The position numbers and the translations under genes are program-made. Positions 1,513 to 21,925 of a DNA stretch of 23,140 nt are shown here, one piece after another; within the stretch, counting starts at the first letter, position 1; each line of letters starts with the position of its first letter. The stretch is taken from IMG/VR virus record IMGVR_UViG_2869924733_000002. The stretch is one strand, 5' to 3'. The DNA is from a virus (lineage: Duplodnaviria > Heunggongvirae > Uroviricota > Caudoviricetes). The notes beneath the pieces were generated by a model. The model worked only from the letters and a program-made list of their open reading frames with translations, ran no database searches and had not been told where the DNA came from.

Positions 1513-1738
1513 CTTATTGATTTTTGGGATAATAGGAACAATACACATAGGCGATAAGCTTTGTTTTTGTTGCCTTTTTTATTGTTCATTTTTTATAGAT
1601 ACCCCCAAAAGTACCCCCATATCTTTTTCCGCCCCTGAAATTTGGTTGTTATTCATACAGCATATCAGGCGGTAACGCTCTCCCTTTAACCCACTTATTG
1701 TATGATAGTGCTATCCCACAATAAGGAATCAGCCAGCC

Positions 1739-2098
1739 ATGAGAATGACCAGTCGCAAAAAAGAGATACTTAGCTACTTTGAACCGGATAACCTCGAATG
1801 GGTGACTGGTGAGATTGGTGCGCCGCCGTTCGATGTGTCGGGTGTGGCCTACCTGCTTCATGGCATGGTGTCGTTCGATAAGCGTCACCAGCTCGAATCA
1901 ACCCGGCGCACACTGGAAAGCATGGTTGCTGGTGGACTGCTTGAGCGGGTGACAGTGTATGAATCGCGCCAGATACGGCGCGGCGGTGATACTAACGCAA
2001 CGGTCGTGCGCTACGGTTTACCCGGTCAGTGCGCTGTTATGCGCGATACTGGCGGCGCTGACAACGCAATATCAGGTGAATACATGCGGGTCAGTTAA
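1739..2098 (+). CDS. Hypothetical protein (119 aa)
   Basis: ORF with an AGGA-type Shine-Dalgarno upstream (ataaggaatcagccagccATG) and a protein-like composition. Its 3' end overlaps the convergent gene 2091..2633 by 8 bp. No family recognised. Confidence 0.5.
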   Translation: MRMTSRKKEILSYFEPDNLEWVTGEIGAPPFDVSGVAYLLHGMVSFDKRHQLESTRRTLESMVAGGLLERVTVYESRQIRRGGDTNATVVRYGLPGQCAVMRDTGGADNAISGEYMRVS

Positions 2099-2633
2099 TA
2101 GCCTGCAATCTGTCGTTGATGCGGCTCAGGTCGTAAACCCGGCGTTCAATATCCAGCATCAGGAAATTGTGGATCTCGGCCTGCTCAGGATTATCAGACT
2201 CTCTGGCCTGTAATAGCAATTCATTGTAACCATGCAAGCCGCCTGAGTTTTCCGCCGGGGTGGTGCCTTTCCCACGCAGGCAGCTAATGGGCTGATTACT
2301 CGTATCGTGTGTTTGCTTCTCCAGCACAATGACGCAATCCCACCAGTCGCCAAAGTCATACGTGTAAACCAGCTTGTCACCCTCATTCTGGAGCGCCGCC
2401 CATAGTGGCGTGATTGCCGCGTTACCCATGCTTTCATCCTCACCCCATACGCGATACTCGCTACCTGGATCACCTTTACGCCCTTTCTCGAACATATACA
2501 GGTGTTCGTCATTCCAGCCAAAAGCTAACTGGATCACGGCATGAAGTTTACTAAAGGGGATTTGCTCTGGAACCAGCACACGCCGCCATATAGGTGGTTT
2601 GCTGTCTCGGATGGTTATCTTTAGCTGGTACAT
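2091..2633 (-). CDS. pRiA4b ORF-3-like family protein (plasmid/IS passenger protein of unknown function)
   Basis: 180-aa ORF with the recalled signature of this family (KITIRDSKPPIWRRVLVP...YTYDFGDWWDCVIVLE). Confidence 0.7.
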   Translation of the reverse strand: MYQLKITIRDSKPPIWRRVLVPEQIPFSKLHAVIQLAFGWNDEHLYMFEKGRKGDPGSEYRVWGEDESMGNAAITPLWAALQNEGDKLVYTYDFGDWWDCVIVLEKQTHDTSNQPISCLRGKGTTPAENSGGLHGYNELLLQARESDNPEQAEIHNFLMLDIERRVYDLSRINDRLQAIN

Positions 2634-2753
2634 GCAAATCCTGAATAAATGCGAATCGGAAGGATAACGATACTGACGTACTCACAATTCTGTAAAGGTG
2701 AATAAAGGAAATTTGCTTAATACGCATAAGTTACATGTGGAATAATCCCATAT

Positions 2754-2939
2754 CTACCTGCGCGGCGCTGGCTTCTTCCACTGGTAGGCAGGTGCTCGCA
2801 TCATTTCGCGGAACCTGTCGCGCCGGGCTATATCGGCATTAACTGATCGTTCTATCTCCCGTTGATCTGCCTGTGTAAGCTGGTGGCCTCCGTGCTCAAG
2901 TTTGGCGATGGTCAATAAGGCTATTTCGCGTGGTGTCAT
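2754..2939 (-). CDS. Small hypothetical protein (61 aa), paralog of 3750..3968
   Basis: MTPREIALLTIAKLEHGGHQLT... shares an almost identical N-terminal block with the product of 3750..3968 (TPREIELLTIAKLEHGGHQLS). GAGGG-type SD upstream. Function unknown. Confidence 0.55.
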   Translation of the reverse strand: MTPREIALLTIAKLEHGGHQLTQADQREIERSVNADIARRDRFREMMRAPAYQWKKPAPRR

Positions 2940-3236
2940 ACGTCATACCCTCTGGAAGGATGAAACACGCCCGGATTAAATTTCATTTTTCGCGGGTATA
3001 AAAAAACGATGGGGCGGGCAGTCCCGGATAGTCAGGGCTGTAGAGATTTGACTACCCCCTCCCCACTGGATTCAGGTTACTGCTATTCCGTTAAGCGCTG
3101 CTTACGGGGATAGCTGCGTTGTGATTTTGACCATTCAGGTCGCCGCTATTTCCTCACCGATTGGGTGCTACGCGCGCGCGTACTTGTCCCGAAATACCAG
3201 AAACCGCCAGCCAGAGGATGATTTCCCTCTGGTGGT

Positions 3237-3518
3237 CTACCTTTGCCTCTTGCCGCCATTTAACCGGAAGGCGTTACCGTTCGGTTGCGCTATCCCCATG
3301 CGGTGTTGCGTTTCGGTAACAGCTTTATGCAGGTCGCCAAATTCCTCAACCTTCACGGGCGGGCGCTTCACGTTCTCCAGACACGTTTCACGGCGGCGCT
3401 TTATCCATTCCCGATCATCGTCCTCGGTGCATAACAGCATGACTTCCATCCATCGTGCGGCAGCTCTCCGGTATAGCCCTTTTGACTCCAGCTCTTCAGC
3501 TTTCCTGTCCCTTATCAT
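3237..3518 (-). CDS. PerC-family transcriptional activator-like protein (93 aa)
   Basis: N-terminal block KAEELESKGLYRRAAARWMEVM matches the recalled PerC/Pch-family signature. Assignment is from memory of the family motif. Confidence 0.5.
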   Translation of the reverse strand: MIRDRKAEELESKGLYRRAAARWMEVMLLCTEDDDREWIKRRRETCLENVKRPPVKVEEFGDLHKAVTETQHRMGIAQPNGNAFRLNGGKRQR

Positions 3519-3554
3519 TTCTGCCTCTCAGATTATATAGATAAGCAAAAAGGT

Positions 3555-3675
3555 GTTGGTTCAGTTGGTTCAGTTGGTTCAATTTGTAAAGAGTATTGTT
3601 TTTAAAAGAATTATTCGCAAAAAGTGAACCAACACACCCCATTTTTGAACCAACAAAAAGAGGCCGTGAACCAAC
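3555..3675. repeat. Iteron cluster: GTTGGTTCA x3 in tandem plus three inverted copies (TGAACCAAC) at 21-bp spacing
   Basis: Tandem 9-mers at 3555-3563, 3564-3572, 3573-3581. Inverted copies at 3625-3633, 3646-3654, 3667-3675, each 21 bp apart. The same module is present in reverse orientation at 13139-13249. Confidence 0.8.
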
Positions 3676-3749
3676 ACGCCGTTTAAAAACCGCTAATTAT
3701 GAGGGACATCCACCAGCACAGGGCTTGTCTAGTGCTGGTTAGGTGCTGC

Positions 3750-3968
3750 TCACCGCGCACGGAGCGGCGCTGGTTTGCTCCAGCGATATGCGGGGCTGGT
3801 CATCATTTCGCGGTACCGCCTGGCTATTACAGGGCCCTCTGCCAGCTGGCGCCTTAATTCCCGCAGTTCTGCCGGGCTGAGCTGGTGGCCGCCATGCTCC
3901 AGCTTGGCAATGGTCAGCAGCTCGATTTCTCGTGGTGTCATGGATTCCCCTCTGATGGTGATCGGCAT
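3750..3968 (-). CDS. Small hypothetical protein (about 62-72 aa), paralog of 2754..2939
   Basis: Track ORF MPITIRGESMTPREIELLTIAKLEHGGHQLS...; the true start may be the internal Met at MTPREIELL. Confidence 0.55.
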   Translation of the reverse strand: MPITIRGESMTPREIELLTIAKLEHGGHQLSPAELRELRRQLAEGPVIARRYREMMTSPAYRWSKPAPLRAR

Positions 3969-4107
3969 TATATTGCTAGCCAGGGTGATTCTTCACTGGC
4001 CAGAGCCGTTGTGCGTGAAGTCTATGCGTGAACTCCATATGCTATGTGTTAAGTTACAGCTCAAAATGTCCTGTTCCGGTGGTAACTTTTTGGTAAACAG
4101 CGTTTTG

Positions 4108-4143
4108 GTGGATACCAACATGGATACCTCGCTTTTGGATACC
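4108..4143 (+). promoter_or_regulatory. Three direct repeats of TGGATACC upstream of the AlpA-like gene (putative operator)
   Basis: TGGATACC at 4108-4115, 4121-4128 and 4136-4143, 50-85 bp upstream of the ATG at 4193, in the divergent region between 3750..3968 and 4193..4378. Confidence 0.35.
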
Positions 4144-4192
4144 ACCCAAAGCCAGATTGTCACTATGCTTAATCTAAAGCAGAGGAGCCTCT

Positions 4193-4378
4193 ATGCGCCT
4201 TATCAAATTAAGCGAAGTCATGCTCAGAACGGGCTTCAAGAAAACGGCAATCTACTCATGGGTTAAGACGGGCACGTTTCCACAGCCAGTTAAAATTGGT
4301 AGATCAGCTAGATGGTCGCTTGAGGAGGTTGAAGCTTGGATCCAGAACAAACTTGATTCGCGGGCTGGCAACCAATGA
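4193..4378 (+). CDS. alpA: AlpA-family phage transcriptional regulator / excisionase-like protein
   Basis: 61 aa, MRLIKLSEVMLRTGFKKTAIYSWVKTGTFPQPVKIGRSARWSLEEVEAWI, the typical AlpA helix-turn-helix signature. SD AGAGGAG just upstream. Confidence 0.85.
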   Translation: MRLIKLSEVMLRTGFKKTAIYSWVKTGTFPQPVKIGRSARWSLEEVEAWIQNKLDSRAGNQ

Positions 4379-5342
4379 TTAGCTTTAATATCGAGTGGTG
4401 GATAGTCCATGGACAAGCTGATGGGCGCACTCGACGAAAACGATGCGCCAGGCGGACTGTGTCGCTCATAAACCGGGAGTTGGCCAGAGGACTTAGTTGT
4501 CCTTTGCAATTCTGCAGGTTCGCACGTGAAAGTAGCCAAAACCCTGCGAACCTGAGTGCAAACCTGCAACTGCGAACCACTGAGGTGGCCTCTCATAGCT
4601 GGTGGTCATACTGGATATTAATCAGGCCTGCCACAACCATAACAATCCATAACAGACGCATCGCACCAACAATTACTAATAGGTCCGCTCGCAACACTAA
4701 TTTTGACTAAGCCTGAACGCAATGCTCAGAAAGAACGAAGAATGGAATGAATCGTACCATCATGTTGCTCCATGATTTTTACGTTCAAGACAGTTGCTTA
4801 ATCTCGCCTCGCAATTCAGCCCCCTTGCCGTTATCGAGAAGTCTTTCTCCTTACGGTTAATGCTATCGGTCTTCATATTACCAGCAGCATACGCCATCCG
4901 ATTATTTCGATGCTACGCGCGCGTACTTGTCGCAAAATACCAGGCAAAGGCCAGATTCAGAACGTCGTGATAACCACCAGTACAACATGAGAGGTCATGT
5001 AACGCGATTTATCACACCAGATACATGTGATTGGTGTACCCGCATAAAACATCGTCATAGCGCGTCCTGTGCGCATATACGCCGATAATCAACACATCAC
5101 CACCACTCTGTCTCATGTAGAGAACAGTTTTATGGTATCCCCCCGCCATCGTGTGCATACTGGTCGGACGTAGTTGCAAAATTTTTTGCAACTGATACCC
5201 CTCGCGCGCGTACTTGTCTCGAAATTGGTGTTTTGCTGTGGCAGTGATATCAGAAAAATCTTCCTGTTTCACATAAAGCGGATATGCGCGTACTGTAACG
5301 GCCCCATCAACGGGGATCGGATTTGAAATCCCGACCCAAGCT

Positions 5343-5762
5343 ATGTACCAAATGCCATGTCTTGGATATATGATGATTGCCATTCTAAACAAAGCTAAAG
5401 GGAGGGTTGGTGTGAATGCTCAGGCTGTCATCATGGTTTTCCTTGGTCTGATTGTCGCAAAACTATATCCAGACTGGTGGAAAGGGGCATTAGCAACTGT
5501 CGCCATCTATTTGCTTTTATCCGTCGTTAAGCGATCGTTCGTTAAGACCGTAAATCAAGCAAAACGTTTCTCATTTAAGAATTTAATAAACTATATTACT
5601 GGGCTTATTTTTTGCCTTTCAATTTTGATCGCCTCAGCTTTTTTGCCCGTATCAATAGCTAATTTTTTTGGCGCACCATATGAGGTAGGTTATCTATTCT
5701 CTGTTTTTTGTCTTGTTCTTTCCCTTCTTTACCTATGGATGAGAGCAAAGAACAAAAATTAG
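5343..5762 (+). CDS. Small polytopic membrane protein, AT-rich (candidate superinfection-exclusion or immunity protein)
   Basis: Three to four long hydrophobic segments (VIMVFLGLIVAKL, LATVAIYLLLSVV, ITGLIFCLSILIASAFLPV, LFSVFCLVLSLLYLW). Likely true start is the in-frame GTG at 5412, 5 nt after GGAGGG at 5401-5406. Convergent with the end of the large operon. Confidence 0.55.
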   Translation: MYQMPCLGYMMIAILNKAKGRVGVNAQAVIMVFLGLIVAKLYPDWWKGALATVAIYLLLSVVKRSFVKTVNQAKRFSFKNLINYITGLIFCLSILIASAFLPVSIANFFGAPYEVGYLFSVFCLVLSLLYLWMRAKNKN

Positions 5763-5775
5763 CCATCCATGGCTA
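5751..5775 (-). terminator. Putative intrinsic terminator for the minus-strand operon
   Basis: On the minus strand, a TTAGCCATGGATGGCTAA hairpin (7-bp stem) is followed by TTTTTGT. It lies right after the stop of 5781..7879 and overlaps the stop codon of the convergent gene. Confidence 0.45.
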
Positions 5776-5780
5776 ACCAG

Positions 5781-7879
5781 TTATTGAGCTTCTTTTTGTG
5801 ATGCCTGTGCGACTCTGGTGAGCGATTGTGTGACCGTACTGATCGCTCTGTCATATGCTGTGCTACCTTTTGGCGTATTTGCCAGACGTAACAAGGCATT
5901 TCGTATAACAGGGCTTTCGTATGCCTTCGCTGCTCCGCCTACGGCACCAGCAGCAGGAACAACAAACGCAGCCGTTTTTAGCATCCCCGCTAATACTGCT
6001 GCGTTTATGATGCCACCACCAACTAACAATCCATAAAGCTGCTGACCATTTAAGTTTTGAACGTTCGCTTTTGCCGCGTGTCTTGTATCGTTGAGGTATT
6101 TAATAACGCCGTCCAGTTCCTTTCCATGTACGCCTTTAAAGAAAGTTGCTGATTGCTTCCTGTTCCGGTGTAACGCATTAATAAACTTCTCAACACTGAT
6201 ATTTCCAGACGGATCAGTCGCCTTATCTACAGCATTCTGAACTATGGCTGCTCGTGCGTTTTGCCTACCATTGTCATCCAGAAGCCTGTAAAGCTGAGAA
6301 CGTTCTGATGGGCTTTGGCTAAAAACGAGTTTTGTTACATCCTCAGGCGTGGCCTTGCCGCTGGCTATTGCCTTTTGAACGCGCGTTCTTCCCATCATGT
6401 CATTGAATTTAGACCATGAGCGATCAACCCTTGCCATATTAATGGCTTCGTCTGCTCCAAGATTTTTGGCTACGGCTTTTTTCATATCCGCCGTATATGC
6501 CTTGTAGATAATATCGCTGGCTTTCTGGAGCGTATCTTTATCAACAGTGTCAGATGACGCCATAAATCGCTTTCGAAGATCGGTTCTGTTTTCCCTCGCC
6601 AGACGCAGGTCATTTGGTCCGCTGGTGATATCGTCTTTAAATTGCTGCAAGACTTTTACCGCGGCTCTATCCTGAGATTTGCCCGGGCGGCTTAACACGG
6701 CAATCTGATTGTCGATAGCTTTTACCGTGTTTGAGAGATCGACAGGGGTATCCCCCATAGCGTCAATTATGCGGTTATATCGCTTTCCTGCTGCCTCAAT
6801 GAATTTTTGTTGCCCTTTAGTCGCAGATTCATAAAGCTGTTTATCAGAAATGCCACCCAGACCATCGCTAAATGTTCTGACTAAATTTTCTCGTGCTTGT
6901 TGTTGATTCAGCCGATTCTTACCGGTTCCAAAAAAAGGAACTCTTTCGCCTAATGTCTGAGCCTGACTCTGCATAAAGGTTTTATCTTTCAGCATGTCAC
7001 TGGTCATTAACGGCAGATTTCTTTCCGATGCAAAGTCGACAGCAGCCTTTGCTTCAGGCGACATATCACCACGAACAGCCCTCGAAACCGCACTCGCTGT
7101 ATTTTCCAGCCCCTTACCAATACCACCAATGCCAGCAGAAATTACCGTTTGTAACGGATCAATATCTTCTCCACCAGCAAGGCTGGTGGCTCCCTGTAGT
7201 GCTAAATCTGTAGCTGCTGATTTTCCTATAGCACCAAGCACCGTTCCAGCCCTGCCCACTGGTGTAAACGCCAACGCATTAGCAAGAAACGAAGTCAGGT
7301 CTTGCGGTGATAAACCCGGCTTGTTCAGGGCATAATCACCTGATGGCAGAGAAACGATAGTATTCCCCTTCTCATCCTGCCTTAATGTCGCCCCCATTCC
7401 CTGAAGAATCTTTTCCTGAGACGCGTCAGAGCCGAAAAGTTGAGACCATCCAGCCTTTAGGGCATCCATGCTTAGTGAGTTCAATTCTGGGGCAGAGGTG
7501 ACATTTTGCAGTCTCTCCATCTCTGGAGTCATTCGGCTTTCGCCTGTTATAGCATCGCGCATCGCAGCCCCAAGACTGGCTCCCTGTTCTGCTGAACGCT
7601 CAAGCCCCTCTCTTTGCTGAGTAGCTAACTTTGCATACCCTGACGCAAGAGAATTATCAGATGATGTATGTTGAATATTTTGAGTTGCTGATTGGGATCG
7701 GTCTATTTCATTCGTTGATGGTAGTGGATAGGCAGCATAAAAAGCCTGCTTAGCCTGCTCTACACTTTCTCCGGCTTGCGGGGCAACGACTTCATTGAAG
7801 TATTGCTCCTGAGCCTGCGCTTTTTGTTCTGGTGCTAACGCCTGATACTGTGGAGAGGCGATAACATCTTTCCATGCTT
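5781..7879 (-). pseudogene. Large alpha-helical protein (about 701 aa when reconstructed), cut from its start codon by an IS insertion; DNA-ejection/internal-virion-protein-like (tentative)
   Basis: Track ORF 5781..7562 stays open upstream to 7879. Removing the IS (7882-8797) and one TA copy joins it to ATG GC at 8800-8804, giving MAKAWKDVIASPQYQ... in frame with a TAATG overlap to the upstream gene. Has a hydrophobic Gly/Ala-rich segment near the C-terminus. Confidence 0.6.
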
Positions 7880-7941
7880 TAGGCTGTGTCCCTTAATCAT
7901 CTGAGCTATAGTAACTGTCTGTTTACACAACATATTGAACT

Positions 7942-8391
7942 ATGGCTCGCTACGACCTTCCCGATGAGGCATGGACCATCATCAAGCCCCTGTTACCTCC
8001 TGAACCCGCCACACCACGGGCCGGACGCCCATGGGCTGAGCACCGTAAAATCATCAATGGCATGTTCTGGGTGTTATGTTCCGGTGCACCATGGCGCGAT
8101 TTACCCGAACGATATGGGTCATGGAAAACTGTTTATAACCGCTTTAACCGATGGTCAAAGTCAGGCGTGATTAATATTATTTTCAACAGGTTGCTTTCGC
8201 TACTTGATGCAAACGGCTTTATTGACTGGTCTGCCACCGCGCTGGATGGCAGTAATATCCGGGCGCTGAAATGTGCCGCCGGTGCTCAAAAAAACATCCC
8301 GATATCGACGGAGATAATGGGCCGGGTCGCTCTCGCGGCGGTTTTGGCACCAAAATCCATCTGGCAACAGACGGAAGTGGCCTCCCGTTAA
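7942..8391 (+). CDS. IS5-family transposase OrfA (N-terminal part)
   Basis: MARYDLPDEAWTIIKPLLPP... is the N-terminal domain typical of two-ORF IS5-family transposases. Overlaps OrfB in the -1 frame. Confidence 0.8.
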   Translation: MARYDLPDEAWTIIKPLLPPEPATPRAGRPWAEHRKIINGMFWVLCSGAPWRDLPERYGSWKTVYNRFNRWSKSGVINIIFNRLLSLLDANGFIDWSATALDGSNIRALKCAAGAQKNIPISTEIMGRVALAAVLAPKSIWQQTEVASR

Positions 8392-8786
8392 ATATCGTGC
8401 TAAGCCCCGGACAAGCTCATGAAAGCCAGTTCGCGCAACGACTTCTGGACGGGATTGGCGTTCAGCGTCAGAACGGCAGCATGAAACGCCGTGGACATGC
8501 GGTACTGGCTGATAAAGCGTATTCAGGGCGCGCATTGCGCAACGAGCTGAAAAATAACGGTATAAAGGCAGTAATCCCCCGAAAGTCAAATGAGAAAATG
8601 GCATCGGATGGACGTGCACAGCTTGATCGTGATGCGTACTGCAATCGTAATGTCGTTGAACGGTGCTTTGGGCGGCTGAAAGAATATCGCCGCATCGCCA
8701 CGCGTTACGACAAAACGGCGAGAAATTACCTGGCGATGGTGAAACTGGGCTGCATCCGACTCTTTTATCAACGCTTACGTAATTAA
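8271..8786 (+). CDS. IS5-family transposase OrfB (DDE domain); probably expressed as an OrfAB fusion by -1 frameshift
   Basis: DDE-type motifs (GGFGTKIHLATDGSGLP..., DKAYSG, VERCFGRLKEYRRIATRYDK). An A7 run at 8288-8294 lies in the OrfA/OrfB overlap. Confidence 0.8.
   Translation: MCRRCSKKHPDIDGDNGPGRSRGGFGTKIHLATDGSGLPLNIVLSPGQAHESQFAQRLLDGIGVQRQNGSMKRRGHAVLADKAYSGRALRNELKNNGIKAVIPRKSNEKMASDGRAQLDRDAYCNRNVVERCFGRLKEYRRIATRYDKTARNYLAMVKLGCIRLFYQRLRN
8288..8294 (+). other. Candidate programmed -1 ribosomal frameshift heptamer (AAAAAAA) in the IS5-family transposase
   Basis: OrfA reads caa aaa aac; OrfB reads tca aaa aaa cat, shifted by -1 over the same A-run. Confidence 0.5.
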
Positions 8787-9887
8787 GGGACACAGCCTAG
8801 CCATTAATCACCCCATAGTGAAGAAAAGTTACTGCTGGCTGCTGGCTGTGATACCTGCTCAGATTGCGGCAATGTCTGCGACGAAGAAGAAGTTCCTCTG
8901 TCAACTGCTGAAATAACCCGCAAAGCATCATAAGCTCGACCAGAAGCAGCTTTCAGCGAATTGAACTGGTTTTCCATCTTCCGGCGCTTGGTATCAATGG
9001 TTTTTGTGGAGTCGCCAGGCTGAGGGAAATACATTTGATAATATTTTGACATTTCAGCAGGTGCGATAGCTGCCCCTGTTTCCTGACGGAGTATTGCCAT
9101 TATTGCGTCATTAGCATTAACAACGTATTGCTGCTCTGTTGGGCTGAGCGTTAAGTTAGCCAGCGTCCCATTACCCAAAGCATTATTAATGATCGCCACT
9201 CGCTGTGGGCTAAGCTGGTCTTTCAGTGTATCTATTGAATCAAGAGCATCCCTAACCCTGTATGCAAATCCAGCAGCTTTTTTAGCCCCTTCTGGCGACT
9301 TTTCCATGATCTTTTGGGCTGTTGGCAAAGCTATTGGACGAAACCCATCTCCAGATATTGGCTGGTTTAGTTTTCCCTGCTCTTCACTTCCGTCTGTGTA
9401 GTATTTTGTGACAGTGCCATCATCGTTTTCTCTAACACTCATTAATTTTTTGGCGTTTGTATTAATTCCAGCCGCTGCCGCAAATGCCGCCGCCCCCTCT
9501 GGATCCGCCTTTAACATTTGAGCGTACTGATTGTAATTCTGCATTGCTGCTGTTGGTGCATATGCTGACGTTAACGCATTTGCTCGGCTAATATCCTGCC
9601 CTCTCGCCTGAAGTGCTTCGCCAGCCTGATTGCTGCGGATTGTCTCTGCCAACTTGCCACGCTCAATATCCCGACCTTCCATTTGATCTTTGATATCGAA
9701 ATACTTCTCATGACCGAGAGAAAACAGTGCCATACTACCAGCAAGCCGCTGGAATCCCTGTGGATCATTAACATGCATTTCGGCAACAGACTCAGGAGAA
9801 ATTCCCAAGCGACGCATTTCATCTTCGTTATCTGCTATGAATTTTCCAAATGCCCCAGTTCCGAGCGAAGATGCGATTTGAGCACTA

Positions 9888-11040
9888 AATAGCTGCGCTT
9901 AATACCGCTACACTTTTGCCAGTCCATGTTTGCCTCCGGGGAATGGGCTGACGGTTTCCATAAAATGGCGAACTTTTTTCAACAGTTGCCACATTGAGCG
10001 GCACTGATGATTACGCGTTATTGTGTCGTGAAGTGCCTGCCATAGCCGTTCAACATGATTCACCCATGGCGAGTAAACCGGCTGATAAATGACCCTGAAC
10101 TTCGGGTTCTCCTTCAGCCAGCTCTGTGTTTCCCGGCTTTTGTGGATAATGTAGTTGTCCACGATCAGCGTGATGGTTTTCGCCCGACGGTATGTCGCTT
10201 TAAGCCGCTTCAGCAGGCTGATGAACAGCGCCGAACTTTTGCTGTTGCCGCCCACATAGCTGACTTTACCTGTCCCGCTGTGCAGCGCTCCGGCCAGATA
10301 ATATTTTTCATTCTGTCCCGGCGTGACCACCCGTTTTTGCTGTCCGCGCAGTTGCCAGTCCGCACCGATTTTGGGATGAAGATGGATATCCACTTCATCT
10401 TCATAAAAGACCGGATGCTCTGCGCTGCATTCGTCCAGTGCTTTATGGATTGCTGCCATCTTTTCATCTTTATGCGGGTCACGGATACGCAGAGTTGGCG
10501 CAGCCCTTCGCCACACAATCCCCGCAGACGGCAACCAGCGGCGAACGGTTCCGGCATTTAACTGGCAACCGGTTATCTCATTGATTTTTATTGCCAGCAG
10601 TTCTGTACTCCAGCGTGAACGCTGGTAGCCAAAGTCGCCGGGAGAATGTTTTACCAGCTCACGTAACAGTGTGCAGATATGCTCAAACGGCCAGCGACGG
10701 GCACGCCCGGCAGGTAATGATTTCAGTCCCTCAACACCCGACTGCGTGAACCAGTTAATCCAGCGTCCAACAGAGGAACGGGCGCAGCAGAGCGTTCTGG
10801 CAACGTCGCTGACACGGTCGCCCCGGTGCAGCATCAGCATGGCAGTCAGTCTGCGGGCATAATTTTTATCGTGTGTTTTATGGATGGCTTTCTGCATCAG
10901 GCGTCGTTCGTCACGGGAAATTGGTGCTATGATCGGCATTGCTCAGTCCGGTTGGTGATTTGTTTTGATTTGGCGATTGATCAGATCGCACAATCCGGGC
11001 TAAGTTCCCTCAAAATGATCTACTATTCCGCGCAGCTATT
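9888..11040 (-). mobile_element. IS630 (1153 bp) inserted at a CTAG target with TA duplication
   Basis: Terminal inverted repeats: aatagctgcgc at 9888-9898 and its reverse complement gcgcagctatt at 11030-11040. TA at 9886-9887 and 11041-11042. Length is exactly 1153 bp, matching the recalled IS630 size. Confidence 0.9.
9908..10939 (-). CDS. IS630-family transposase (343 aa)
   Basis: Full-length 343-aa ORF inside the IS630 boundaries, recognised as the Tc1/mariner-like IS630 transposase. Confidence 0.9.
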   Translation of the reverse strand: MPIIAPISRDERRLMQKAIHKTHDKNYARRLTAMLMLHRGDRVSDVARTLCCARSSVGRWINWFTQSGVEGLKSLPAGRARRWPFEHICTLLRELVKHSPGDFGYQRSRWSTELLAIKINEITGCQLNAGTVRRWLPSAGIVWRRAAPTLRIRDPHKDEKMAAIHKALDECSAEHPVFYEDEVDIHLHPKIGADWQLRGQQKRVVTPGQNEKYYLAGALHSGTGKVSYVGGNSKSSALFISLLKRLKATYRRAKTITLIVDNYIIHKSRETQSWLKENPKFRVIYQPVYSPWVNHVERLWQALHDTITRNHQCRSMWQLLKKVRHFMETVSPFPGGKHGLAKV

Positions 11041-11379
11041 TAGTCGCAAGATGACCAATAGAATTTCTCTGGTCGTCATCAATAAAGCCCATCCCTTTCT
11101 GAACGCTTTCAAATTCTTCTGGATACTCAGAAATAAGACTGCGCATTTTGTTTCTGTCTCCAGACTCAAAAGCCCCGGCATATGCTTTCTGAAACTCTGC
11201 TTTACGCTGTTGTTGACGTGCCTGCTGATTAATCTCAGCAACGCCTCTTAGCCCCTGTAGCGCCATTAAACCTACGTTTGGGTGCTGCTGATACTGCACA
11301 GGCTGAGGAACGGAAGAACGAGGAGCATTATCATTTTGCGGTGCCATGCTAGGCAGCCCGCCAAGTTGCCATGTCGCCA

Positions 11380-12690: not shown

Positions 12691-13138
12691 AACGCCCCCT
12701 TATAACTGTATAAAACAACAGTTATTATAGTTTCACAAATCGCAATATTCATCATCGTAATTGCAGAATATGAAACAAATAGCACAAAAAAATGCCACCG
12801 CTCAGTAGCTGGTGGCGTCGTTCTGTGTGTCAGGTTTTGACAGGTTTTTTATGGACTCTAAAAACTATATTTATGGTGTCGCATTACTCTTCACGGCAGG
12901 CGCTTTTCAGTTCTGCCCTTGCTTCTGGCTCCATTGGTAATTTGATTCGCGATCAGCTATGCGGATGGTTTGCTGAACAGGCATAACAACTTCTCAGAGG
13001 CTGTTTTTTGAACTACGAAAATTTCGTAGTGCTCACTTTCAAAAACGTCACGCCCTTGTACACAGGATTTTACGAAAGTCTCGTAAAACACTCTCTGATG
13101 CCAGCCAGGTGTTGTGCGCATCAATTCAGTCACATTGT

Positions 13139-13249
13139 GTTGGTTCAAAATACCGTGTTGTTGGTTCAGTGTTGGTTCAATAAAAAGAATAAAATCCTTA
13201 TAAAACAATACCATTTACAAATTGAACCAACTGAACCAACTGAACCAAC
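13139..13249. repeat. Iteron cluster immediately 3' of the primase-helicase gene (crr/ori-like)
   Basis: GTTGGTTCA at 13139-13147, 13160-13168, 13171-13179, then TGAACCAAC x3 in tandem at 13223-13249. Reverse complement of the module at 3555-3675, including an identical core of about 45 bp. Confidence 0.8.
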
Positions 13250-18001: not shown

Positions 18002-19061
18002 TGGTTGCCCCCGTTTTTCCTGGCATTTCGCCACCTTCCAGCAGGAAATGAACGTCACGAACGGCGAGATCCAATATCGCGAGTAACGCCTTCAGTCTTT
18101 CGTCTCGTGAGGGAGAGTTGCTCACCAGAATGTCGTTAATCACTTCTGTCAGTGTGATGATCTGGCTTGTGCGTTCGAGGGGATCCATATGCACATCGTA
18201 GGTTTTAATCATGTGCCACCTCCATGCGGATACGACCAGCAAAAAAGCAGATGTGATCGCGCACCAGAGAACGGCGAGCATCGCGTTCAGACTCGGCAGC
18301 AATATGATGAATTTTGGCGGTAATTGTCGGGCAATCGCGGCGAACTGCGGCGATAATCCAGATAAATTGCGGTTTTTGGGTAGTGGTAGTAGCCAGCATG
18401 TGGCAGCCTCCTTGTACTGGGAGTTCTTCCCACCACCGGAGCTGCGAAACTCGCTGGTGGTGGACTGAACAGAGTTCGCAGTACCGGCGTACAAGGAAAC
18501 CGGCCAGCCTTTCGGCTGCCCTGTCCAGCCCACCATAATTTTGCAAGCGACGCGGATTATAACCGCATCACTGAAAAAAGTGTGAGTCTGGCTAACGGCA
18601 CAAAAAAAGACGCTCGGCGCGTCATGTGTCGCCTCGTACATTTCCGGGCTGCGAAACCCGGCACCCGTTTTATGAGGTGCCTTATAACCATAAACCGTGT
18701 TGCCGCATAACGGCAAGCTCTTTTTTATGGACTCCGAAAACTCACTATTGGAAGCACCAGATGCACAATACATCGCGCTCATTTCGTTAACGTCGCGCGT
18801 GTGGACGAAGGTTTTTGTGGAGTCACTACGCGAGCAGAGAAAGCCATCTACGACCAGAAATTCTCTGGCGCAGCCGCCGACCTTCTCAACGCTAACACCA
18901 TCGACCGTAATTTCTGACATAGTTAAGGCATCCGCTCCCACCACCAGAAAATGATAAACTTTGCTTGTATCTGCTGTATTAATGCCAGACTTTGCTGTCA
19001 TATTGCTGGATTTTGGCGACATACCAGCCAGTGAAAATATCTTCTTCTGGACGGTTAGCAT
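17994..19061 (-). CDS. Gene with a strong start at 19061; the 355-codon open frame has an ambiguous 3' end (see findings)
   Basis: ATG at 19061 with GGAGGT SD, 1 nt after the upstream stop. The N-terminal 150 or so residues look protein-like. The frame then stays open through a terminator-like hairpin (18601-18623), a structured region and an internal SD+ATG at 18212 (MIKTYDVH..., 72 aa). Confidence 0.4.
18205..18399 (-). CDS. Small hypothetical protein (64 aa) in an alternative frame
   Basis: AAGGAGG sits 7 nt upstream of the ATG at 18399 ([19 protein letters not shown]...). Its stop overlaps the internal ATG at 18212. Confidence 0.4.
   Translation of the reverse strand: MLATTTTQKPQFIWIIAAVRRDCPTITAKIHHIAAESERDARRSLVRDHICFFAGRIRMEVAHD
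18601..18623 (-). terminator. Putative intrinsic terminator or attenuator inside the long open frame
   Basis: Minus strand: GACGC-GCCGA-GCGTC hairpin followed by TTTTTTT. A TGA in another frame sits just before it. Confidence 0.35.
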
Positions 19062-20901: not shown

Positions 20902-21783
20902 CTATAAATCTCTACTCATTAAATCAGATATTTTTATCAAGCTCATTTCTCTGTCTTTGTTTACATAAAGCTGAAGCAAGCGGGTGTATCTCTCGCTTAT
21001 AGATTCAAGTGCAAAAGGCTTTATTGATTCCTTAATAGCCTGCGTATCTTTCGGATCATCACTAAAAACCAAGGCAGAAATCATCGGATTGCTCACTTCC
21101 TTACCTGACTTCTCACCCCAAATCAGCAGATCAACAATAGGTATCACTCTATTAGATATCAACTTCTGAAGGGTCTTTAATCCAATCCTTTTCTGAGCGA
21201 CATGCTCTCTCTCTGGTACTTTTAACTCTTTTCGCCATAGAGGTAGAAGGTGAGTCAGGCTGGTAATAATTTCGTCATCAGTGGCGTCATCTAAATCTAT
21301 AGAAACGAGTATGATGTTAGGGGAACAATTACTTAGGTTTCCAGTAACACTCGCAAGCATAGCGTTTGCCTTGAGGTAGCAATCCTCTTCGTCTCTTTTA
21401 AAAAAGCCTTGATCTATCGATGAGAAAGAGTACATGGCCAGCTCTGAAAATGTTACTGGACTAACCCCCATAGCTGAAGATAATGAGGGAAGATCATCGT
21501 ACTCATTTCTTAATGATGGGGCTTCATCATTTACTTTGCGAATAAATTCTTCGACCTCTTCCTCTTCTTCATTGAGAATGGTTAGGTTAGGATCGCCCGA
21601 AAAAATCCTTTCATATTTTATATCGTACTCTTCTTTGAATATAGCAGTGTCATCTTTTGCATGACGCAATAAAAAATCGCGCCACTCTAATTCTTGAATC
21701 AAGTCCGGCAAGGTTAAATCATTTAAAAATTCATAATTACTAATATCAAACCATGCTAAATCTTGTTTTTTGGCTCTCACCAT
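20902..21783 (-). CDS. Hypothetical acidic protein (293 aa), AT-rich cargo gene between integrase and alpA
   Basis: Visibly AT-richer than its neighbours. G-rich SD before the ATG at 21783. Acidic stretch ILNEEEEEVEEF. No recognisable family. Confidence 0.65.
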   Translation of the reverse strand: MVRAKKQDLAWFDISNYEFLNDLTLPDLIQELEWRDFLLRHAKDDTAIFKEEYDIKYERIFSGDPNLTILNEEEEEVEEFIRKVNDEAPSLRNEYDDLPSLSSAMGVSPVTFSELAMYSFSSIDQGFFKRDEEDCYLKANAMLASVTGNLSNCSPNIILVSIDLDDATDDEIITSLTHLLPLWRKELKVPEREHVAQKRIGLKTLQKLISNRVIPIVDLLIWGEKSGKEVSNPMISALVFSDDPKDTQAIKESIKPFALESISERYTRLLQLYVNKDREMSLIKISDLMSRDL

Positions 21784-21925
21784 ACGCCACCCCGCGCCCC
21801 TAATTCTGACGGCTATGCCAGCCCGTAGGGGTGTACGGGTTTTCGGGGATCAGCCTAGACATAGCCTATTCTTTGTTCGTCTACATAAGTCTACTACCAT
21901 TGCTTAACACGGTCTATTCATACAG

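Follow-up and report, generated by a model that had tools for sequence, protein, structure and literature searches.

Candidate mimics of the pac site of P22-like phages in an EcCIMP1-type satellite island

Finding the packaging signal of a pac phage is notoriously difficult. P22-like phages carry their pac site within the small-terminase gene, terS, and in P22 it is the 22-bp sequence GAAGATTTATCTGAAGTCGTTA in gene 3 (PMC9611059; PMC8022706), mapped by Wu, Sampson and Casjens in 2002 (as cited in PMC9611059 and PMC8022706). Its role is to be recognised by the small terminase (TerS) for directional headful packaging. Mimicry of a helper's packaging signal is established among satellites, for P4 and SaPIbov5 (cos), for EfCIV583 and for the Vibrio element PLE, which has a 14-bp pac mimic (bioRxiv 10.1101/2024.04.22.590561). 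EcCIMP1, a phage-inducible chromosomal island (PICI), is excised and transduced only with the P22-like helper phage Kapi1 (Pick, Stadel and Raivio 2025, PMC11773190). It is without terminase or capsid genes and its packaging mechanism has been termed unclear; Kapi1 transduces it but not a chromosomal marker (PMC11773190). We analysed an IMG/VR virus record of 23,140 nucleotides, IMGVR_UViG_2869924733_000002 (the whole stretch is called the window here), which holds an island of this type with three copies of a short repeat block. With a probability that we put at roughly 0.65, the three blocks are mimics of the pac site used by TerS of the Sf6/HK620/Kapi1 class of P22-like phages, and judging from the comparisons below their role is probably to let a helper TerS recognise the island, so that it is packed into helper capsids.

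The repeat block and the small-terminase gene

An exact 16-mer, CGCGCGCGTACTTGTC, is found at 3173, 4916 and 5203, each time on the plus strand, where 100 dinucleotide-preserving shuffles gave an expectation of 0. It belongs to a family of 28 nucleotides (3173-3200, 4916-4943 and 5203-5230) with an identity of 82-93%, and copies 1 and 2 have further flank in common on both sides, being paralogous over about 75 nucleotides. An earlier note, made from the letters of the window, had described three copies in the same orientation, a shared flank of copies 1 and 2, and a placement relative to a PerC gene (3237-3518, minus strand) and the open reading frame (ORF) of a membrane protein (5343-5762, plus strand), all of which is correct. 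The perfect 16-bp palindrome GTACGCGCGCGCGTAC that it also described is absent by one base. Copy 1 actually reads CTACGCGCGCGCGTAC, with a 14-bp palindrome, TACGCGCGCGCGTA, and the palindrome shrinks to 12 bp in copy 2 and to only (CG)4 in copy 3. The similarity between the copies lies mainly outside the CG tract and is not a likeness of that tract alone. The conserved core, TTTCGnGACAAGTACGCG on the minus strand, is asymmetric, and therefore a dimeric regulator of the AlpA or PerC type that reads a palindrome, as had been proposed, is not indicated. When the three copies were aligned with four relatives, the invariant columns in these seven contexts were TTT.G.GACAAGTACGC.CG.G on the minus strand, and the flanks of the block did not align across them.

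3171-3214, minus strand: copy 1, a pac-like block of the Sf6/HK620/Kapi1 type, with the core TTTCGGGACAAGTACGCG at 3194-3177.
4916-4958, minus strand: copy 2, a block of the Sf6/HK620/Kapi1 type, with a CG tract 2 bp shorter than that of copy 1.
5203-5230, minus strand: copy 3, a block of the Sf6/HK620/Kapi1 type, with the core TTTCGAGACAAGTACGCG at 5224-5207.

The small terminase of Kapi1 (MT813197) is identical to that of HK620. Nucleotides 172-189 of Kapi1 terS, TTTCGCGACAAGTACGCG, agree with the core of the block at all 17 specified bases. No other part of the 39.4-kb Kapi1 genome matches as well: the mismatches here number 4 in 22, as compared to 7 at the runner-up. The alignment of copy 1 with terS reaches about 45 nucleotides, covering R-W-L-A....F-R-D-K-Y-A, and includes an extended terS-like flank, CTGGCTGGC at 3214-3206, which is equivalent to the codons W-L-A; copies 1 and 2 are both like Sf6-class terS over about 45 nucleotides. 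The P22 pac site, annotated in OQ031658.1, codes for R-E-D-L-S-E-V-V, and this peptide aligns with H-E-D-F-R-D-K-Y of Kapi1 TerS. As far as the alignments go, the block is therefore a copy of the pac-equivalent segment (codons F-R-D-K-Y-A) of a Kapi1-type terS, where the placement of pac for the Sf6/HK620/Kapi1 class rests on homology to the mapped P22 site. Leavitt and co-workers reportedly placed the Sf6 pac site, in 2013, within the part of gene 1 that encodes the DNA-binding domain.

Seven terS genes were compared by blastn-short with all 23,140 bases of the window. The matches were confined to pac-equivalent segments: the three copies, two further sites at 12828-12866 and 18720-18742, and a P22-type fragment at 18827-18913.

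3177-3194 (copy 1), minus strand: Kapi1 terS 172-189, 17/18.
4920-4933 (copy 2), minus strand: Kapi1 terS 176-189, 14/14.
5207-5224 (copy 3), minus strand: Kapi1 terS 172-189, 17/18.
18720-18742, minus strand: T147 (147-amino-acid class) terS 143-165, 23/23, the unit being AGTTTTCGGAGTCCATAAAAAAG.
12845-12866, minus strand: T147b terS 143-164, 22/22.
12828-12848, minus strand: T176 (176-amino-acid class) terS 119-139, 20/21.
18827-18913, plus strand: P22/IME10-type terS 288-380, about 90% over 77 nucleotides and about 94% over 69 nucleotides.

Secondary, weaker alignments were seen at two of these sites, T147 nucleotides 151-164 at 12845-12858 (14/14) and T147b nucleotides 142-165 at 18720-18743 (22/24). 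Copies 1-3 are on the minus strand, as are the units at 12828-12866 and 18720-18742. The 18720-18742 unit, in the early leader, directly adjoins the -35 of the isrK promoter; up to 39 PICI leaders have it, in sense only. At 12828-12866 a T176-type unit is fused to a T147b-type unit, past the primase gene and the origin-like repeats; this cluster follows the repeats by about 270 nucleotides and stands just ahead of a strong terminator-like hairpin. The P22 class is represented by a longer piece of terS and by a second, shorter unit beside copy 3:

18804-18913, plus strand: captured P22/IME10-type terS fragment of about 110 nucleotides, made up of a pac-like unit (18804-18834) and 77 nucleotides of downstream coding sequence.
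5236-5266, minus strand: P22/IME10-type pac-like unit GGAAGATTTTTCTGATATCAC, in sense and adjoining copy 3 on its upstream side.

The captured fragment is 89.6% identical over 77 nucleotides to SEN22 terS 288-364 and 94.2% identical over 69 nucleotides to IME10 terS 312-380, and its pac-like unit agrees at 22/31 positions. Its place is in the early leader, where it runs antisense to the genes of the PICI, and 14 related PICIs have it too. The unit at 5236-5266 agrees with the pac-equivalent of IME10 terS at 21/31 and with the P22 type at 20/31, where shuffles gave an expectation of 0. The ORF lists and annotations of the window contain no terS-like ORF.

Conservation and unit arrays in related islands

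To see the block in other islands we used 78 IMG/VR loci, fetched via the Icd-like protein. It was present in 47 of them (at most 6 mismatches in 22), always in sense, 73-259 nucleotides after the upstream ORF and 385-585 (mostly 385-456) nucleotides before icd. The upstream ORF was mostly DUF4222, at 73-259 nucleotides, and otherwise AntA or an unidentified ORF; there were three outliers. With a box at a fixed position in 47 of 78 satellites, the copies are not plain recombination scars, which had been one of the earlier suggestions. The window has a counterpart of this arrangement, with copy 3 downstream of a truncated DUF4222 gene, like the blocks in the leaders of related PICIs. In one relative, P0029, an intact DUF4222 N-terminus is fused upstream of a region of the copy-3 type, and copy 3 has a 24-nucleotide exact match with the leader box of one related locus. 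Outside the block there was no detectable homology between the window copies and the leaders of related islands. In four related loci homology to the window restarts exactly at 4907, the edge of copy 2; mosaic breakpoints in such a place would fit an exchange of units as modules.

In the leaders, degenerate units of about 27-36 nucleotides are arrayed in the same orientation, with the last unit touching the -35 of the isrK promoter. Tandem Repeats Finder detected no tandem repeats in the leaders, the units being too degenerate, and the arrays were recognised by visual inspection and by comparison with terS. Around the block they hold P22-type, Sf6-type and T147-type units, and these stand in different frames inside single long "Ash family" ORFs, which implies that they are DNA features and not protein repeats. 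Among 66 distinct leaders, Sf6-type units were found in 36, 147-type units in 31 and 176-type units in 29; P22-type units occurred in sense in 2 and antisense in 12, the combinations of classes varied, and 13 leaders had none of the classes. Over 30 positions, which comprise the P22 pac site and the flank 3' of it, the "type A" units (GAAGGTTTTTCTGAAGTCACTACGCGAG) agree at 24. When a P22-type (type A) unit from Buttiauxella was compared with 50,697 phage genomes, ten matches were obtained, nine of them in terS; these nine belong to P22-like phages of E. coli and fall at gene positions 268-298, which is the location of pac.

For the other classes we examined 79 terS genes adjoining Kapi1-like terL genes. 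A stretch of 25 nucleotides from the 147-amino-acid class (..EFSESIKKG..) is common, without mismatch, to up to 39 leaders, and TGTCAAAACCTG from the 176-amino-acid class (..LSKPDI..) is common to 31. The 12-mers common to many PICI leaders and to phage DNA are short terS stretches, chiefly of the pac-equivalent segment, present in up to 39 islands and all in sense. Some further terS 12-mers, including one in antisense, occur in fewer leaders, and the controls (terL, portal and upstream) gave only sporadic 12-mers, in at most 3 islands and on both strands. The units also follow the variants of the protein: island blocks with GACCAG correspond to the TerS variant FRDQYAK, and island units with TTTAGAGTCC to the variant EFLESIKKG. 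A threshold of 18/22 was too noisy as the islands are related, and stricter scans and blastn-short were used.

A proposed packaging role and its rivals

The 5' end of the window is paoD with a yagP remnant, and from 1528 to the window end the sequence is a PICI of the EcCIMP1 type.

1528-1537, minus strand: attachment-site (att) core TCCTATTATC, the distal end of the EcCIMP1-type PICI, with the boundary as published (PMC11773190).
3237-3518, minus strand: PerC-family regulator gene, homologue of EcCIMP1_025 (Pfam PF06069, E = 3.7e-30).

With the att core at 1528-1537, all three copies lie inside the mobile element, and copy 1 begins about 42 nucleotides past the stop codon of the PerC-family gene. 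Window positions 1525-5337 are 99.4% identical to E. coli MP1, which has all three copies too. The order on the minus strand is integrase, int-alpA RNA, AlpA, an ORF of 143 amino acids, AntA antirepressor, DUF4222, isrK, C4 RNA, Icd-like protein, TOPRIM/DUF927 primase and P22-like ejection-protein genes. The distal part of the island contains alpA_1 (4193-4378, plus strand), two small paralogues, the PerC-like gene and a PF07929 gene, for a pRiA4b ORF-3 family protein. Compared with EcCIMP1 of MP1, the window has an extra ORF of 293 codons between alpA and the integrase (20902-21783, minus strand) and differs over 5337-11220, the stretch from copy 3 to the ejection-protein genes. Two small ORFs on the minus strand, at 2754-2939 (61 amino acids) and 3750-3968 (72 amino acids), are paralogues, 1002 nucleotides apart and with a DNA identity of 72-77%; they match no Pfam family and their PHROG matches are weak. 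A stretch of about 95 nucleotides (4704-4798) has an identity of 94-96% with DNA whose annotation is that of an IS110-family (RNA-guided) transposase gene or a "putative zinc ribbon protein" gene, and matches of this sort make up most of a spread sample taken from the 2,568 E. coli genomes that match a 3.1-kb query. Rfam models gave C4 antisense RNA at 18453-18540, isrK at 18603-18680 and int-alpA RNA at 21798-21865, all above gathering thresholds and on the minus strand. In a long ORF, the part with isrK and C4 is covered by the Pfam "Ash protein family" model, an indication that the family consists in part of translated RNA genes.

We infer that the blocks are bound by a helper TerS and used in packaging. 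After excision and replication, the helper TerS would bind the blocks on island concatemers and recruit the large terminase (TerL), which would cut close by, and headful packaging would then proceed in one direction, toward lower window coordinates. Such unidirectional packaging would explain that all copies have one orientation. The island of MP1 is 19,963 bp, about half of Kapi1's 39.4 kb, a length that would fit headful packaging. The mimics of other classes at 12828-12866 and 18720-18742 would, together with the P22-type fragment, make up a key ring for several helper types. Whether this holds generally we regard as an even bet: in EcCIMP1-type islands and their relatives, intragenic pac sites copied from several TerS classes (P22/IME10, Sf6/HK620/Kapi1, the 147-amino-acid and the 176-amino-acid class) would form a modular key ring, a single satellite without terminase could be packaged by many helpers, and the arrays would pinpoint the pac sites of those classes to the base pair. 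This suggests that one satellite can address several helper terminase classes via arrays of short sites, and if true, it would explain that most strains bearing the island are without a Kapi1-like prophage. It also offers a candidate, testable answer to how EcCIMP1-type islands, which are common in E. coli and have no terminase or capsid genes, are packaged, and provides candidate pac sites of 18-25 bp each for three TerS classes of P22-like phages.

Several points weigh against a packaging role for the blocks. The 3' half of the block reads GCGCGCG where Kapi1 terS has GAAGG, and since this CG-rich half differs, recognition of the blocks by Kapi1 TerS is not guaranteed. Neither the CG-rich version nor the full block was found in any enterobacterial phage of the GenBank collection. 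One P22-type unit with its fragment has the opposite orientation, on the plus strand. Looser matching, at 18/20, gave a few chance-like matches of other Kapi1 regions, and, the islands not being independent of each other, these recur in many related ones. Finally, the transduction of EcCIMP1 by Kapi1 is very low (PMC11773190). The alternating GCGCGCG after GTAC (e.g. 3171-3180) is conserved in many islands and was seen in no enterobacterial terS examined.

It is conceivable, though unlikely, that the blocks are decoys, which bind the helper TerS mainly to titrate or misdirect it and so interfere with helper packaging or defend against P22-like phages, instead of serving to package the island. 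The same sequence evidence as for pac mimicry can be put forward for this, a sponge would profit from several copies and from mimics of more than one TerS class, and EcCIMP1 has been reported to add to superinfection immunity against Kapi1 while being rarely transduced. However, Kapi1 transduces the island and not a chromosomal marker, therefore some packaging signal must exist, and the near-uniform orientation of the units, which makes no difference to titration, does matter where packaging is directional. The blocks could also serve both purposes.

A little less probable is the view that the blocks are inert relics, either terS fragments left by recombination with helper phages or decayed satellite leaders, with no present role. 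The fragment of about 110 nucleotides of terS in the window leader, the truncated DUF4222 gene adjoining copy 3, the mosaic breakpoints at or near the blocks, and a patchwork region where ORFs are called in inconsistent frames would all agree with it. But of four terS types only the pac-equivalent 18-30 nucleotides survive, which random decay would not be expected to retain so exactly. Furthermore, many diverged islands keep the units in tandem, facing the same way and at a fixed position, while the flanks have diverged fully, and the blocks are intact where adjoining modules have been swapped.

Least probable of the three is an operator or iteron array for an island regulator or replication protein (AlpA, PerC-like or primase), which would govern replication or the early promoter of isrK/C4, with the likeness to terS being secondary; the arrays of related islands do lie directly upstream of the isrK promoter with the last unit at the -35, and a block in Serratia abuts an origin-like iteron cluster, but the three window copies are not beside any isrK-type promoter, a far better origin candidate is provided by the TGTTGGTTCA iterons that follow the primase gene and recur at 3545-3690, and neither the exact identities of 22-25 nucleotides to three unrelated terS types nor the unit variants that match TerS variants would be explained. 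These origin-like clusters, at 13135-13245 and 3545-3690, each consist of TGTTGGTTCA three times, an AT-rich spacer and TGAACCAAC three times, a layout that recalls ori/crr of P4. The first comes right after the primase stop, and the second lies between the ORF of 72 amino acids and PerC, inverted relative to the first. The Serratia case was seen in two loci, where the pac-like block abuts the origin-like cluster.

Other readings were tried and rejected. As a protein-coding repeat, the copies read F(R/C)DKYAR on the minus strand, with copy 1 in frame after the PerC stop, but in many relatives there is a TAA stop in the F-R-D-K-Y-A-R frame (GACAAGTAAGCG), and an extension of PerC into copy 1 is contradicted by PerC profiles that end at the annotated stop. 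An ORF of 126 codons around copy 3 (5012-5392, minus strand), called in some RefSeq annotations as a hypothetical protein, appears spurious: it has only close relatives in E. coli and Salmonella, of variable lengths and frames and with no family match, and its 5' part with the start is the truncated DUF4222 gene. For a structured RNA, Rfam searches of 2600-5800 up to E = 5 gave only one chance-level match to an internal ribosome entry site. Consensus scans for promoters and terminators found no more sites than shuffles expect, and none at the blocks. An antisense target for C4/CI, like seqA, was rejected as the C4 loops vary widely among islands with identical blocks, and an att site or tandem-integration scar because the blocks lie within the island, whose real att core is at 1528. 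Nor is the block the terminus of a repetitive extragenic palindrome (REP), an enterobacterial repetitive intergenic consensus (ERIC) or an insertion sequence (IS), a possibility that had been raised as a check: a pattern scan of 185,579 genomes, one per species, gave 18 matches, about the number expected by chance, a few of which are true relatives in Serratia and Buttiauxella satellites. Within E. coli the copies are confined to this island family. From the earlier note, the general notions of a small repeat family and of protein binding sites can be kept in a broad sense, while its specific ideas fell away.

Comparison with known packaging systems

Like the P22 pac site, the blocks are short and asymmetric, and they correspond to the homologous position in terS. 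They differ in that the window copies belong to the Sf6/HK620/Kapi1 class, are three in number, and lie outside terS in a satellite that lacks a terminase. With EcCIMP1 (PMC11773190) the window has the att core, the gene order, the PerC-like gene, alpA_1 and the helper Kapi1 in common; the repeats are not mentioned in that paper. From the P4 immunity leader, with its PLE promoter, seqA and CI RNA, and from the Gram-negative PICIs with C4 and isrK, where isrK has been equated with seqA and C4 with CI (PMC10111431), a likeness can be seen in the related islands, whose block lies between the upstream operon and isrK-C4-icd. Unlike seqA, the block shows no covariation with the C4 loop, and it is thus not an RNA target of that type; the three window copies are also far from isrK and C4.

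The closest parallels are the satellites P4, SaPIbov5, EfCIV583 and PLE, which are without a full packaging specificity of their own and are packaged by the terminase of the helper. In them, as here, a short stretch is identical to the helper signal, 14 bp in PLE and 17-25 nucleotides in the present case. In contrast to these known mimics, the site copied here is intragenic, inside terS, it is present in several copies, and the island and its relatives have mimics, in arrays, for at least four TerS specificity classes. In the literature searched we found no prior description of pac-mimic arrays of several classes or of intragenic pac mimicry in satellites. What is new here is the intragenic P22-like pac mimicry, its presence in an island family with unexplained packaging, and the multi-copy arrays over several TerS classes.

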